This document shows positions 2,771 through 13,348 of a DNA stretch of 31,107 bases, piece by piece (positions within the stretch are counted from its first letter, which is position 1; every line of letters starts with the position of its first letter). Location of the stretch: the IMG/VR virus record IMGVR_UViG_2693429768_000006; one strand, given 5' to 3'. The notes under the pieces were generated by a model that did no database searches, was not told the DNA's origin, and saw nothing but the letters and a program-made list of their open reading frames with translations. The position numbers and the translations under genes are program-made. Origin of the DNA: a virus. Lineage: Duplodnaviria > Heunggongvirae > Uroviricota > Caudoviricetes.

Positions 2771-3298
2771 ATGCAACATCTGAAAAATATTACCGCCGGA
2801 AACCCCAAAACCATTGAGCAGTATCAGCTTACGAAAAAAGCTGGCGTTATCTGGCTATATACAGAAGACGGTAAAAACTGGTATGACGAATTAAAAAACT
2901 TTCAGGATGATACTTTAAAAATAGCTTATGACCAGAAGGGGATTATTCGTTGTATTGAGAAAGACGTATCAACACTTAACCCTGACGGGTTAAGTGTTGT
3001 TGAGTTACCGAATATAACAGCCAACCGTCGCGCCGATATCTCGGGAAACTGGAAGTTTCTGGATGGTAAAGTAGTAAAGCGGGAATATACAAAACAGGAA
3101 CTGCAACAGCAGGCAGAGTTACAAAAAGCCGCTTTGCTTTCCGAAGCGGAGTCTGTGATTCAACCGCTGGAACGTGCTGTCAGACTGAATATGGCAACTG
3201 ATGAGGAACGCACACGACTGGAATCATGGGAACGCTACAGCGTTATGGTCAGCCGTGTGGATACTGCAAAGCCTGAATGGCCACAGAAACCAGAATAA
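2771..3298 (+). CDS. tfa: tail fibre assembly protein (cognate to Sv')
   Basis: 175-aa ORF with the Tfa N-terminus (MQHLKNI..., GVIWLY) and conserved C-terminus ([26 protein letters not shown]). Confidence 0.85.
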
Positions 3299-3304
3299 CA
3301 ACAA

Positions 3305-3329
3305 ATTAAGGCCCGTACGGGCCTTTTCT
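3305..3329. terminator. bidirectional hairpin between the convergent tfa genes
   Basis: AGGCCCGTACGGGCCT palindrome with T-rich sequence on both sides. Confidence 0.45.
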
Positions 3330-3862
3330 TATTCTGGTGGTTCCGGGAATGTTACAGGAAGAACCGAGGTATCAGTTGTCTCAACCTGTTGCACGTATCG
3401 CATCCAGTTCATCAGTTGCTGTCTGTCTGAATCAGTGATAATCCCCAAAGTAAGCTGTGTTTGCCAGAACTGCGTTTTTTCTCTGGCCTGCTGTAATAAT
3501 ATTTTTTTCTGGTTTTCCGTCTGTAGGCGCAACTCTTCTTCGGTATATACACGTTTAATGACTGCGCCATCTTTAAACATCCATTTACCTGAGTCGTCAG
3601 CACGCCGGTTGGCGGTAATATCAGGAATCTCAACGACGCTATAACCTTCAGGGTTAAGTGTGGAGGCATCTTTGGTTATGGCAACAATAATATTATTTTC
3701 ATCGTAAACAATCTTTATGGTGTCTGGCTGAAAGTTTTTCACTTCCTCATACCAGTTTTTTTCGTCCTCAGAGTAAAGCCAGATAACTCCGTGTTTCTTT
3801 GTTAACTCATACTGTTCCAGTGTTTTAGCATTACCCGCTTTTATGTTCTTTAAGTGCATCAT
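3329..3862 (-). CDS. tfa: tail fibre assembly protein (cognate to Sv)
   Basis: 177-aa [17 protein letters not shown]...GVIWLY..., same family as 2771..3298 but a divergent C-terminal half. Confidence 0.85.
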
Positions 3863-4649: not shown

Positions 4650-4813
4650 ATTGCTTATTTTCCTGGCAGTTTTTAATTTTGCAGCTGTAGAAGCATTGCC
4701 GGATAGTTCACCAGAAAGGCCACCGCTGAATGTTTGTCGATTAGTCCAGGTATTCGCTGTACTGAGTAACGGTATTTTCTCCCCGCTTGTGCCGAGTTCT
4801 CGTAAACCGAGGT
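4198..4813. repeat. direct repeat copy A (about 615 bp), identical to 5645..6259
   Basis: Aligned by eye at both ends and internally; diverges from copy B just right of the crossover core. Confidence 0.85.
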
Positions 4814-4822
4814 TTTAGATAA
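4797..4822. other. gix/pix-like crossover site (site M)
   Basis: TTCTCGTAAACC-GA-GGTTTTAGATAA; same orientation as site R, inverted relative to site L. The distal half carries the in-frame TAA. Confidence 0.7.
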
Positions 4823-4852
4823 TGGCGGTTTCTGGCCTGTATGGCATGATTT

Positions 4853-5059
4853 GTGCTTTTGGACGGGAGATTCAGCGTGCTGATTGGCTATGTAAGGGTA
4901 TCAACAAATGACCAGAATACAGATCTGCAACGAAACGCTCTTGTTTGTGCAGGATATGAACAAATATTTGAAGATAAATTAAGCGGAACAAGGACAGGCC
5001 GACCTGGATTAAAACGTGCTTTAAAGCGCCTTCAAAAAGGTGACGCACTGGTTGTCTGA
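4853..5059 (+). pseudogene. pin: serine DNA invertase 5' fragment (second copy, identical); likely GTG start at 4877 with a GGGAGA Shine-Dalgarno
   Basis: Identical 68-codon frame to 1479..1685; followed at about 5111..5203 by the tfa 3' remnant and at 5218..5250 by hairpin copy 3. Confidence 0.8.
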
Positions 5060-5261
5060 AAACTGGACTGACTGGTTCACTGTATGCGGCATCTTGTCGT
5101 GCTGGTGGTGGAAGCCTGGAAAAAGTATCGGGTGTTGCTGAACCGTGTTGATACATCAACTGCACCTGATATTGAGTGGCCTACGAACCCTGTCAGGGAG
5201 TAATCATTGGGATTATGCCGCAGCACGTCTTAAGCAAGAACGTGCTGCGGTTGGATGCTAT

Positions 5262-5643
5262 TTTTTCCCTGAAGCGGAAAACATTACTACAGTACCTTGA
5301 ACCTTGGTTTTAACATTCTCGAAATGCTCTGAGAGTATATGTGTTAAGCCTTCTTCGGAATCTTTTGTGTTTGAAAAGATGCCTTTCTGATTGTAAATGC
5401 GCATCAGTTTTTGACCGAAGCTATTGTGCACAACTCCATCGCCAAGAATTGTGGCTCCGTATAGAGTTCCATCGTCAGTTAAGGCCTGCGCCGCATTGCG
5501 TATTACACAGCTTTTTGTAGATATATTTCCAGGCAGGCAGTGAAGAAGGTAAAACATGGAAATGGAATCAAATTGACCATGTAACGCCGCGGGATAAGGT
5601 TCAAAAACATCATGGCTAATTTTATGTTTAATTTTTGATTCCC
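5262..5643 (-). pseudogene. methyltransferase 3' fragment (residues ~96-222), inverted duplicate of 895..1280
   Basis: Translation ESKIKHKISHDVFEPYPAALHGQ...SASGKK is identical to the C-terminal part of the 612..1280 product. The ORF-track N-terminal extension (5644..5740) is stf DNA read out of frame. Confidence 0.8.
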
Positions 5644-8953: not shown

Positions 8954-11900
8954 TCAGCTAATCGTGATGCCTGCAGTGGCTTTCTTCATCACCACAACCA
9001 GCAAATCGCTGATACTTGCTGTGGGATACCAGTTATTTACCAGCCATGCTGACACCGAAAACTCCAGTGTCATGTGACCGTGACCGGCAGGCATATCAAT
9101 AACACCACTGTAAATCAGCGTATTATCCAGCGCGGTACGGTTATAAATTTCAGCACCGTTTTTCCGCACTATCAGACGGCATGAGGAGTAAATATCAGTA
9201 TGCTCTTTCTCATGTTTAGCGCCGCTGAATGCCACCGCCGGAATAACAATCTGCCGGTCAAACGGCTGATCGTCATAAACCCTGACGGTAATGGTTCCTG
9301 ATGGCCACCGCTCCGGTGCACGGGAGTCCCGGGGGAAAGCTTTGCCCACTGTTTTAACGAGATCGCCTTCAATCTGGTTCGCGGACAATTTTCCCAGAAC
9401 CCGACAGTTCTCGTTAATCGTGACGTTGTTGAGCGTCCCGGAGTTCGCATTCACGTTACCGCTGATATCGGCATTTTTCGCCGTCAGCCGCCCGTCCGGT
9501 GTCAGGGAAAATGCCGGAGGATTACCGCCGCTGGTAATGGTGGGAGCCGTCAGATATTTCAGGAACACTTCATTCATAAATATCTGATCGCCCTGACCAA
9601 CAAACATCGGCTTTGTGTTGCCATTCGCAGGATTAATCATCGCAATCCTGTCTGCCGCCAGCAGCACCTGACTCTGCATTCCTGCTGGCGTATTCTCAAT
9701 ACCGGCACCGATACCCGCAATATAAAGGCGTCCGTCCTGCATCTGCTGCAGTTTCACGGCCCACATGCTGTTCAGGTTATTATTTGTATCAACCTGAACT
9801 TTCTGTATCTGCTGGATTGCCGCACTCTGATTTTCCAGTTTTTTATTGACGGTCTGCGTGATTTCATTGCTGACATTCGTAATGGACGTCCTGATTTCAG
9901 CCAGGTCCGGCGCAAGCTGACCGTTATCAATCTGCGTCCACAGCTCCTGGGCCAGATGTGTTTTCCCGATTTCTCCTTTGAAAAAATCCAGGTAACCTTC
10001 CGCATCATCGCTCGCCCGACCGACAGCCTCCACGAATGCCGATTTGCCAACAGTATTCACACTGCGGATATAAAAATAATAATCATGGCCCGGTTTGATA
10101 TTGATACTGGCAGCTATCCAGTACAGCGCCGAGCCAAGATAGCGGGCTGCGGTTTCAACCTGCCTGATATCCGCAATCCGCTTTTCCGAGAACCAGAACT
10201 CAAACTGTACCGTCGGGTCATAAACGGCAAGATGTGGCGTTGCGGTTATCTGAAAATAGCCCGGCGTCAGCTCAATCCGCGACGGTGCTGCCGGTGCGGT
10301 AATCCGGAAGGTGGTGGTGGCAGGTTCACCCTGCTGGCCATAGCTGTTTATCGCCCGCACCGTCAGGGTGTATTCCCCGAGCGGCAGGCCGCTGAAACGG
10401 TGCTCCGTGTCTGCGGTGATGGCGGTGGTCACCAGTCTGGCATCCGTTCCCTTACCACTGGTCAGGCGCAGACTGAAGCGCACACCCTTCACCACCCGCG
10501 GCGTGTCCCATTTCGCCTGCGCCAGATACTGGCCGTCAGCTGCGCTCACCTCCACCGTCAGGTGCTGCACTGCCGGTGGGATGACGCTGTTCAGGGAACC
10601 TGACTGCGGCTCAAAGCGGGCACCGTTATCCACGATGGCTTCTTTTTCCGGTACGTGCTGCACCGCCGTGATGGCAAAGGTGCCGTCCGTGTTTTCCCGG
10701 ATGGAGACACAGCGGAACAGGCGACGGCGCAGTGACGGCAGGGAGAGTCCCCACACCCCGTATGTCTCCACACCATCAGGCAGGGTACTGACCTGTATCC
10801 GGTCCGGCGCGGGGTGTTCGGTGATGTCCACACTCACCGGCTTACCGCTGCCGTTAATCAGGTTCACCGTGGCGGCACCGGTCTCCGGCAGGGTAACCTC
10901 ACGGTCCAGCGTCAGGGTGCGGGTGGCAGCATCAATGGACAGGACACGTCCGCCGGTCAGGGTCCCGGCATAGTCATTATCACAGATTTCAATAATGTCA
11001 CCGGGTGTGTGCCGCAGCCCCTGAGACCCGAGCGTGAAATCCACCGTCTGCGTTTCCAGCAGTTCGGTCTTTATCACCCACAGTCCGGCACGGTGGGCCT
11101 GACCGCGGCTGGTACAGCCGAACGCGTCCATCTTCAGCAGATTGCGCCCGTAGCGCAGTATGGCTTCCGGGTCTTCCACCAGCTCCGTGGAGGTCTGCCA
11201 GCCGTTCTGCGGGTCGGTGTAATTCACCTCCACCGCCGTGTGCCGGTCCTTCAGGGCACTGAAGCTGTAGCGGAACCCCACGCCGTTATCATCCACCACC
11301 ACATCGCTGTTGGTGTACGGCCACACCACATCCGACAGGCGGTCCTGAACAAACGTCAGCATCTGGCCGTTCCATACCGGCATACAGCGCATCGCCGAGC
11401 AGAAATCACTGAGAACATCCCACGCCTTACGCTGTTGTGCCAGGTACGCATTGAAGGTCATCCGCGGCTCGGTGCCCCCGAAGCCATCCGGCACCATCTG
11501 GTCGCAGTACTGCCCGATGGCATACAGCGCCCACTTGTCCACATCCGCCGCCCCCAGACGTTTTCCCATGCCGTAGCGCGGGTGAGTCAGCATGTCCCAC
11601 AGACACCAAGCCGGATTGTTGCTGTATGCCGGTTTCAGACTGCCGTCCCAGATACCACTGTACGTGCGTTTTTCCGGGTCATAGTTTGACGGCACCTGGA
11701 TGATGCGACCGCGGATATGGTAGTTCACCGTCATCTGCTGACCACCAAACTGCTCCGCATCCACCTGCATCCCCACAATGGCCGTGTTCGGGTAGCACTG
11801 TTTCACATCGATGATTTCGGTGTATGACGACCACAGCGTTCTGTTCTGCAGCTGGTCCGTGGTGCTGTCCGCCGTCTCCCTGACCATCCGGATGTTAAAG

Positions 11901-12427
11901 GGGCGGGGAGGCAGATTATCCAGAATCACCGAGGCCAGGAACTGTGAGGTGGTCTTGCCGTTAATGGTGACATCCTTTTCTGTCACCCAGTTACCGTTAC
12001 GCTGTAACTGAATCAGCAGACGGACAGAGGACGGATTACGGTCACCCTTTGACGTGGTCTCCACCAGTGACTGCACCCCGAAGGTCACCCGCAGGCGGTC
12101 AATGTTCGCTGACGTAATGGTGCGTGTTACCGGTTTTGCCCTGGTCACTTCGACACCCAGTACAGTTTCAGAGCCGGAGGACTCAAAGCCTTCCGGTGGT
12201 GTCTGCTCCTGCTCCCCGGCACGCCAGACCGCGGTCACACCGTGTATCACGGGATTACCGTCCGTGTCCGTCAGCGGGGTTTTGTTCACCAGAATACTCT
12301 GCAGGCCTTTCACCGGGCCATCTATCGGCCCCTCACCAATCGCATCAATCACGCTCATCATCTGCGTGGATTTGAGATTGTCTTTCGCCTCACGCGGTGT
12401 GTGCGCCTTGCCGCCACCTTTGCCCAT
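8954..12427 (-). CDS. J: tail tip / host specificity protein J
   Basis: 1157 aa; strong similarity to lambda gpJ from the N-terminus ([22 protein letters not shown]...) through the conserved core. C-terminal ~150 aa diverge from lambda. Confidence 0.95.
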
Positions 12428-12494
12428 TACATCACCTCTTACCGTGATAATTGTTCACTCACAAAAACAACAGGCACCTCACCGGGTGCCTGCG

Positions 12495-12620
12495 TCATGA
12501 CGGAATAAAATTTCTGAATATCTTCACATTTTCACACACTGACTGTGGCGCGTATAATTTCACTGCGTTAGTGTTTTTTTGCCCGAGTAACAAAAACAAC
12601 TCCTTCACATTGATCTTCAT
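12495..12620 (-). CDS. candidate 41-aa ORF in the I-J intergenic insert
   Basis: ATG at 12620 to TGA at 12495 (MKINVKELFLLLGQKNTNAVKLYAPQSVCENVKIFRNFIPS); weak SD; overlapped antisense by the candidate RNA. Confidence 0.15.
   Translation of the reverse strand: MKINVKELFLLLGQKNTNAVKLYAPQSVCENVKIFRNFIPS
12531..12558 (+). promoter_or_regulatory. candidate sigma70 promoter (TTCACA, 16-nt spacer, TATAAT)
   Basis: Perfect -10 hexamer TATAAT at 12553-12558 with a 5/6 -35; points rightward into a terminator about 100 nt away. Confidence 0.4.
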
Positions 12621-12662
12621 TTGTCTGTCCCCGCAGCTCCGCGATCACTGCGGGATTTTTTT
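12565..12662 (+). ncRNA. candidate ~100-nt small RNA (promoter-to-terminator unit), antisense to the small ORF start
   Basis: Bounded by the promoter above and an intrinsic terminator; no plus-strand ORF with a plausible start lies between them. Confidence 0.3.
12629..12662 (+). terminator. rho-independent terminator (plus strand)
   Basis: CCCGCAG...CTGCGGG stem followed by ATTTTTTTA. Confidence 0.5.
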
Positions 12663-12667
12663 ATGTT

Positions 12668-13348
12668 TTATCCCTGTCGCCCGATAACCACGACCTTTCC
12701 GCCCCCGCCTTCATCACGGGTGCTGATGTCCTGGGATATACGGCGGGAGCCAACCAGCATTTCCCCGTAAGGCACCGGCATCGAGTTCCCCTGGGCAATC
12801 ATGTTATCCAGCGAGGAAAAGTACGTGTTCTGTCTGCCGTTATCCGTTGCGCGGTAATCCGGTGTTTTTGCCTTCGGGGCCAGCATCTGGGCCACACCGC
12901 CCAGAATCATGCTGGCTCCAAGTGAAAACAGCATCGTGGTGGCAGAAAAACCACCGGCTGCCAGGGCTGAACCCCATAACGCCATTGATGCCCCGGCAGT
13001 GAAGAAAGAGCCCACGATGGCTGCCGCCCCCAACACAATCTGCAGTCCACCCTTTCCGGCCCCGGCCAGTCGCGGCACAATGTGGATGACCGTTCCCTCA
13101 CCCAGCTGTTCGTGAAGGCGGGCGTACACCACCTCCGGTGCCGTGTCTTCACCGGCAATACGTATCTGGTACCAGCCTTCGTTCATCTGAAGGCGAAAGC
13201 CCGGCATCTGCATCGACAGGGCGCGAATGGCTTCCGCTGCCGTGTTCACATACAGGCTGAGGCGGCGGCCAAATCGTTGTAAATCCCCGTGAAGGCAGAT
13301 GTGTGCCAGTGGCGGTGACGCCAGACAGAATGCGTTCGTCGTTGCCAT
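12668..13348 (-). CDS. I: tail assembly protein I
   Basis: 226 aa; matches lambda gpI (ICLHGDLQRFGRR, GAAAIVGSFFTAGA, NTYFSSLDNM). Confidence 0.9.
   Translation of the reverse strand: MATTNAFCLASPPLAHICLHGDLQRFGRRLSLYVNTAAEAIRALSMQMPGFRLQMNEGWYQIRIAGEDTAPEVVYARLHEQLGEGTVIHIVPRLAGAGKGGLQIVLGAAAIVGSFFTAGASMALWGSALAAGGFSATTMLFSLGASMILGGVAQMLAPKAKTPDYRATDNGRQNTYFSSLDNMIAQGNSMPVPYGEMLVGSRRISQDISTRDEGGGGKVVVIGRQG

Follow-up and report, generated by a model that had tools for sequence, protein, structure and literature searches.

A lambda-like late operon occupies the minus strand of the stretch of phage DNA analysed here (31,107 nt; hereafter the window), with K, L, M and a tape-measure gene upstream and lom and a side tail-fibre gene downstream. 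Its tail genes I and J are separated by a gap of 240 bp (12428-12667), and the question is what this DNA encodes. An earlier note, made from the letters of the window alone, had drawn attention to the gap and proposed that its plus strand, antisense to the operon, specifies a non-coding RNA of ~100 nt with its own promoter and terminator, perhaps paired with a short open reading frame on the other strand. The gap itself is as described, J ending at 12427 and I beginning at 12668. The note also took I and J to be adjacent in lambda; in fact 60 bp lie between them there, so the extra DNA in the window amounts to ~165-180 bp. By sequence identity, the gap holds the pasB gene, which encodes an already known sRNA, described in 2021 and surveyed in 2026. 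The features discussed below are collected in Table 1.

Table 1. Coordinates of the features of the I-J gap and its flanking genes, numbered from the first letter of the window.
Feature	Position	Strand	Remarks
Tail tip / host specificity gene J	8954..12427	-	ORF of 1157 aa; identical flank annotated gpJ in E2348/69
Late-operon hairpin and U-run	12460..12493	-	Just upstream of the J ribosome-binding site; ancestral I-J spacer element
41-codon ORF, judged not a gene	12495..12620	-	Peptide MKINVKELFLLLGQKNTNAVKLYAPQSVCENVKIFRNFIPS; poorly conserved
pasB cassette ("moron")	12505..12667	+	Between the I stop codon and the ancestral I-J spacer
Imperfect dyad TCTGA-N6-TCACA	12513..12528	.	Just upstream of the -35; candidate protein-binding or UP-like element
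Putative sigma-70 promoter of pasB	-35 TTCACA 12531-12536; -10 TATAAT 12553-12558	+	16-nt spacer; 11/12 match
Predicted primary transcript, ~98 nt	12565..12662	+	Predicted start G12565, 7 nt after the -10
PasB sRNA as published, 83 nt	12580..12662	+	Ends from RNA-seq coverage and Northern size
A-R-N triplet run AGU AAC AAA AAC AAC	12586..12600	+	Candidate Hfq distal-face site
Unstructured middle, candidate seed	12600..12619	+	Single-stranded in folds; variable block between conserved ones
Intrinsic terminator and Hfq-binding 3' end	12630..12662	+	7-bp stem, 11-nt loop, A, U7
Tail assembly gene I	12668..13348	-	Pfam Lambda_tail_I, E = 2.6e-16

Elsewhere in the window, an 847-nt inverted repeat with 100% complementary arms (895-1741 and 4797-5643) encloses a 3-kb segment that carries oppositely oriented tail-fibre assembly genes (2771-3298, plus strand; 3329-3862, minus strand) along with C-terminal parts of tail fibres, and a methyltransferase-like ORF (612-1280) extends into one of the arms. 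This arrangement looks like an invertible or recombining tail-fibre cassette, or is possibly an assembly artefact.

Identity and Published Expression of the RNA

Positions 12580-12662 of the window are 100% identical to the 83-nt PasB of prophage PP6 in EPEC E2348/69, which is listed on the minus strand of NC_011601.1 (1466343->1466261) between E2348C_1436 and E2348C_1437 (Table S6 of Pearl Mizrahi, 2021; PMC8550237). Coordinates were converted by subtracting the NC_011601.1 position from 1478923, and the published Northern probe, AATCCCGCAGTGATCGCGGAGCT, is the complement of window 12636-12658 (PMC8550237). An independent check on the numbering comes from PasB-2, which differs from PasB at position 27 (Zhu, Shabalina and Storz, 2026; bioRxiv 10.64898/2026.05.13.724894): this position falls at window 12606, where C or A is found among alleles. 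In E2348/69 the gap lies at NC_011601.1 1466256-1466495, in the opposite orientation of the record, and has the same placement between I and J, the same orientation relative to these genes, the same terminator and the same U7. Its two departures from the window, at 12552 and 12562, fall outside the published RNA; the base before the -10 is G in the window and T in the E2348/69 locus. The host also differs: a 100% match to the window is Escherichia phage 204576, whose host is E. coli 204576.

PasB was found by RIL-seq, confirmed by Northern blot and shown to depend on Hfq, with log2 changes in the hfq mutant of -6.8 and -2.4, a U-tract of seven and an expression level that is higher in static overnight LB cultures than in DMEM (Pearl Mizrahi, 2021; PMC8550237). 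Its RIL-seq interactions number 37, of which 30 are with coding regions or 5'UTRs; no common target motif was reported, and the motif table has no PasB entry (PMC8550237). In the E2348/69 lysogen the baseMean of PasB is 482-1082 against 4.8 and 15 for I and J (PMC8550237), and expression of PasB from the prophage therefore does not depend on the late operon. Its distribution has since been surveyed and the gene described as embedded in an operon of phage structural genes (Zhu et al., 2026; bioRxiv 10.64898/2026.05.13.724894), a location confirmed here as the tail-gene operon of a lambdoid prophage, antisense and between I and J.

Sequence identity and the published E2348/69 experiments together establish what the RNA is, its expression, its size, its dependence on Hfq and its many Hfq-mediated partners. 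What we infer here in addition are the promoter, the start site, the contact between the A-R-N run and Hfq, the seed and any regulatory outcome. The identity to PasB bears out the central proposal of the earlier note, and a real Hfq-dependent sRNA gene was thus recognisable from raw sequence alone. Rfam 15 returned no family for the whole window at gathering score or for 12300-12800 at E <= 10, and PasB is absent from it; weak matches to Ref84, Hrs1 and the Trp leader were set aside, as they reflect the terminator only.

Putative Promoter, 5' End and Upstream Dyad

The promoter that the earlier note had read on the plus strand, TTCACA and TATAAT at a spacing of 16 nt, was recovered by a promoter scan with 11/12 positions matching, and is the sole match of at least 11/12 on both strands of the 31-kb window, where 0.29 would be expected under a first-order Markov model. 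Two scans of IMG/VR yielded 135 loci comprising 53 promoter-to-terminator alleles and at least 38 distinct RNA bodies. Conservation of the two hexamers in related prophages, a check named beforehand, was found in this set. The -10 is kept in 135/135 loci, positions 2 and 6 being invariably A and T (TATAAT in 93, AATAAT in 29, TATCAT in 11 and GATAAT in 2), TTCACA stands at the -35 in 119/135, and the spacer is 16 nt in 134/135.

Relative to the start that the -10 predicts, the published 5' end (12580) is displaced 15 nt downstream and comes directly after a U-run (12574-12580). No promoter-like -10 precedes 12580 in the window sequence. The RNA is therefore either processed, by trimming in the U-run, or its 5' end was mapped imprecisely. 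In the allele alignment, the 5' GCGUUA and the U-run are among the best-conserved parts of the family. GCGUUA (12565-12570) can also pair, in many alleles, with another part of the body, a UAACG(C/U) or UUAAC element whose position varies between allele classes and whose equivalent in the window is 12604-12609; this pairing is gained in PasB-2 (A at 12606) and missing in PasB (C at 12606). It may represent a closing helix that masks the pairing region.

Immediately upstream of the -35, the half-sites of an imperfect dyad are invariant in the 53 alleles from the 135 loci, and its 6-nt spacer varies (ATATCT, AATTCT, AACTCT, ATTTCT). This conservation is in part a product of the search, because most of the loci were found with a 22-nt pattern covering the dyad block; seven alleles found through the terminator instead also keep the half-sites, and their spacer differs. 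Could the dyad be a site for CRP? It matches the CRP core at 9/10 positions, a level at which about one chance match is expected per window. Against a matrix built from 107 ChIP-seq sites it scores 4.9 bits, the 5th percentile, and 48 window positions score as high or higher. Its centre (12520.5) lies at -44.5 from the predicted start, compared with about -41.5 for a class II CRP site, 3 bp off. The dyad is absent from the published CRP site list of H10407, a strain that may not carry the cassette. CRP is not supported as the dyad factor, given the low matrix score and the non-canonical spacing, and the dyad is possibly a UP-like element or a site for another factor. An invariant element at this place suggests that the alleles are regulated in common, and such regulation could account for the raised expression in stationary LB culture.

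Three related loci have lost the promoter. In L039 (IMG/VR) an insertion sequence with an IS3-family-like left end follows directly after the dyad and the promoter is removed; L129 and L187 keep the RNA body and terminator, and unrelated DNA replaces the promoter region. All three are likely dead copies.

RNA Body and Candidate Hfq-Binding Features

The terminator that the earlier note had placed ~70 nt downstream of the promoter is present, its stem formed by CCCGCAG (12630-12636) and CTGCGGG (12648-12654) around an 11-nt loop and followed by A and T7 (12656-12662); the T-run ends 5 nt before the I stop codon. This hairpin is the only structure common to the family in the allele alignment. 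Its stem is invariant across alleles, so there is no covariation to count, and the loop varies in both length and sequence. The fold of the whole RNA is no more stable than that of shuffled sequence (z = -0.7).

Upstream of the hairpin, three to seven A-R-N triplets occur at the same place in 37 of the 38 distinct RNA bodies, and two in the remaining one. The stretch UCUUCAUUUGUCUGU precedes the hairpin, which is followed by U7, so that the features of an Hfq module are present. A hairpin, its U-tail and the preceding U-rich stretch bind the proximal face of Hfq, and A-R-N runs the distal face. By analogy, the hairpin, U-tail and U-rich stretch of PasB would form a proximal-face module and its A-R-N run a distal-face site.

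Between these elements lies a segment made up of CUCCUU (12600-12605), which resembles an anti-Shine-Dalgarno sequence, a variable block of 5-7 nt and AUCUU(C) (12613-12618). Its conserved-variable-conserved pattern suggests that it is likely the pairing region, and Zhu et al. (2026) likewise propose a seed just upstream of the terminator. Concrete mutations with which to probe PasB function are offered by CUCCUU...AUCUUC and by the A-R-N run.

The Cassette, Its Distribution and Its Alleles

With the 240-bp gap as query, matches were obtained in 1106 of 5426 complete E. coli genomes and numerous phage records, and in most related phages and genomes the match covers query 78-240 only, equivalent to window 12505-12667. 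This cassette has a GC content of 0.37-0.44 compared with 0.55-0.65 in the flanks. When an artificial empty junction was made by joining 12330-12504 to 12668-12840, lambda, DE3, HK629 and other lambda-type phages aligned to it in one piece, and Stx1a, Stx2a and Stx2c phages, BP-4795, 2851, YYZ-2008 and PPompW gave two aligned blocks with 160-265 bp of additional DNA. Of 60 records sampled at even spacing from the 263 that matched, 33 contained the insert and 17 had an empty site.

The remainder of the gap, towards J, belongs to the late operon. Its minus strand can form a hairpin (12493-12470, z = -3.0) followed by UUGUUUUU, and one pair of the stem is C-G, U.G or U-A across relatives, a series which makes the hairpin compatible only with a minus-strand RNA. 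The 60-bp gap of lambda (L350:765-795) holds an analogous hairpin, CCGCC-tgcg-GGCGG, followed by TTTTGTCATTT, and the sense-strand hairpin is for this reason regarded as ancestral and outside the pasB cassette. It may serve to stop unmodified polymerase or to shield an mRNA end. Phage ASU11 (L004:1305-1505) and PPompW-type phages (L005) have an I-J gap of another type, extended by ~100 bp towards J. There, a two-way terminator-like hairpin, AAACCCCGGTATC...GATACCGGGGTTTT, replaces the hairpin of the 12460-12493 type, and a 66-codon ORF annotated as hypothetical overlaps the start of J.

All alleles share a GCGUUA-like start, a U-run, a CUCCUU-like block, the variable 5-7 nt, AAUCUU, a U-rich stretch and the terminator, and the divergent ones include the window type, a GUCGUGAUAUAAGAAUAAUU type and an EcOnc22 type. 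A scan of genome contigs with the terminator pattern gave, among the matches listed, only unrelated terminators and none with the dyad block. Comparison of these sequences places PasB in a larger family that occupies this site and numbers at least 38 distinct RNA bodies. Whether the I-J gap as such houses one widespread modular sRNA family, in which a constant frame of control region, leader, A-R-N run and terminator carries a swappable segment, and which perhaps acts as a brake in cis, is a more speculative proposition that we put forward tentatively and would not favour. A constant frame with a swappable pairing segment would mean that prophages plug different host targets into the same regulatory input, and a brake on the tail genes in cis is conceivable, given that the RNA runs antisense to the tail operon in every case.

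Mode of Action and Alternative Explanations

We consider it highly probable that pasB is an autonomous sRNA cassette of a lambda-like prophage whose product depends on Hfq and most likely acts in trans. In the lysogen, where the late operon would be silent, host RNA polymerase would initiate at the cassette's own sigma-70 promoter, and transcription would run away from J, antisense to the late operon, to stop just short of the I stop codon. The product, ~83-98 nt long, would comprise a U-rich leader, the A-R-N run, the unstructured middle and a 3' end formed by the hairpin and U7. It would bind Hfq, on which its accumulation depends, and most likely act in trans by limited base pairing of CUCCUU...AUCUUC with mRNAs of the host and of the accessory genome.

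An action mainly or additionally on its own phage, in which RNase III cleavage or interference with late transcription could tune J or tail production or damp lytic growth, is in our judgement unlikely, although several features speak for it. PasB is perfectly complementary to the late mRNA just past the I stop codon, from which its U-tract is separated by the 5 nt at the edge of the cassette; transcription of the two is head-on; every allele examined lies in the I-J gap and always opposite the late operon; and pairing in cis would be independent of the allele. However, PasB is abundant precisely when I and J are silent (PMC8550237), and neither I nor J appears among the listed RIL-seq interactions available from that source (PMC8550237). 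Nor does PasB cover the ribosome-binding site of any real gene: its 3' end falls short of I, and its 5' end is over 135 nt away from the start codon of J. When the single-stranded region of PasB (12586-12630) was scanned for duplexes with 31 translation-initiation regions of the phage in the window, the pairings were no better than those of shuffled seeds. The trans-acting cassette is preferred over one directed at the phage itself.

The cis-antisense pair suggested by the earlier note is a different matter. Here PasB would be the antitoxin-like antisense partner of a translated 41-aa peptide encoded on the minus strand. The ORF does exist where the note had placed it, and its ATG (12620-12618) lies within the PasB RNA, but the 41-codon form is found in at most 8 of 124 related loci. 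In E2348/69-type alleles, including the strain in which PasB was validated, it has 22 codons, because a tyrosine codon becomes a stop when G at 12552 is replaced by T. Some 80 of the 124 loci lack the start codon or any related MKI... ORF; in the commonest alleles the start codon is ACG or absent, and changes in the length of the T-run shift the frame. There is no conserved minus-strand ORF in the gap among the 124 loci, and neither a scan nor inspection by eye found a minus-strand promoter in it. The start codon has no properly spaced Shine-Dalgarno sequence and sits inside the complement of the terminator hairpin, and the sense strand is near-silent in the lysogen. The peptide is largely polar, as the note had itself cautioned in calling it not hydrophobic, and this too counts against a toxin. 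Such a pair is extremely improbable, and the poor conservation of the ORF across sequences effectively refutes it. Still less credible is a chance pairing of promoter and terminator in non-functional spacer. The unremarkable fold of the RNA and the lack of an Rfam match would fit an accident, but the identical sequence is covered by Northern, RNA-seq and RIL-seq data (PMC8550237), the promoter has no equal in the 31 kb, and its elements are kept across 135 loci despite diverged bodies. The published expression of PasB refutes the chance arrangement.

Comparison With Known Systems

Phage morons are exemplified by lom and bor of lambda (Juhala et al., 2000, as cited in PMC4104026). By definition the pasB cassette is a moron, one with an RNA as its cargo: as with lom and bor, extra DNA with its own promoter and terminator and a deviant composition lies between genes that are neighbours in related phages, and is expressed from the prophage. 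Unlike theirs, which is a protein gene, the cargo of the pasB cassette is a non-coding RNA opposite the late operon.

AgvB and AsxR are anti-sRNAs of EHEC prophages (Rfam RF02702 and RF02703). They resemble PasB in being prophage-borne, Hfq-binding and expressed in the lysogen, with A-R-N motifs, a constant 3' part and a variable pairing part, but are 51-60 nt long and lie downstream of PR' at the Q/stx moron site. Neither RF02702 nor RF02703 matched the window at gathering score or 12300-12800 at E <= 10. Membership of PasB in this group was rejected, since no model matches and location and size differ. PasB is not known to act as a sponge for any other sRNA. A role as a sponge of GcvB, prompted by the CA-rich AACAAAAACAAC, was likewise dropped, as the listed RIL-seq interactions available from PMC8550237 include no GcvB-PasB chimera.

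The closest relatives among named RNAs are EcOnc22, EcOnc23 and EcOnc24 of the EHEC O157:H7 Sakai prophages Sp15, Sp14 and Sp11, respectively, of which EcOnc22 is ~85 nt on Northern blots, crosslinks to Hfq and is destabilised without hfq (Tree et al., 2014; PMC4104026). The I-J gaps of Sp15 (L351:992-1231), Sp14 (L352:723-962) and Sp11 (L353:773-1012) are 240 bp long, identical to one another and equal to an allele from IMG/VR (L150). The Northern probe for EcOnc22/23/24 starts with GGGAGAGAACGATGAAGATTAAC, the exact complement of the plus-strand body in these gaps; the final 10 nt of its printed sequence fail to match them. As in PasB, the RNA lies in the I-J gap in the same orientation, with the dyad, a promoter spacing of 16 nt, GC(G/A)UUA and the U-run, an A-R-N run, CUCC, AAUCUUCA and the CCCGCAG/CTGCGGG-U7 terminator. 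In contrast to PasB, the -10 is AATAAT, and the two also diverge in the -35 region, in part of the leader and in the middle "seed".

The published Hfq CRAC peaks (PMC4104026) fall inside the Sakai gaps, to the left of the RNA unless they are shifted by +128. The current Sakai record is 5,498,578 bp long. The original record was presumably 5,498,450 bp, a difference of 128. In the 2014 table the peak coordinates of EcOnc22/23/24 appear to be displaced by 128 nt from those of the current RefSeq record. With +128 assumed, the Hfq peaks span the predicted RNA from +6 to +66 and take in the U-run, and their position over the leader favours a start ~7 nt after the -10. From their sequences, EcOnc22-24 appear to be a diverged allele of the PasB cassette, a link made neither in Table S6 of PMC8550237 nor in the 2026 preprint. 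It brings together two groups of sRNAs that were named separately, and extends the family well beyond the reported "few nucleotide differences."
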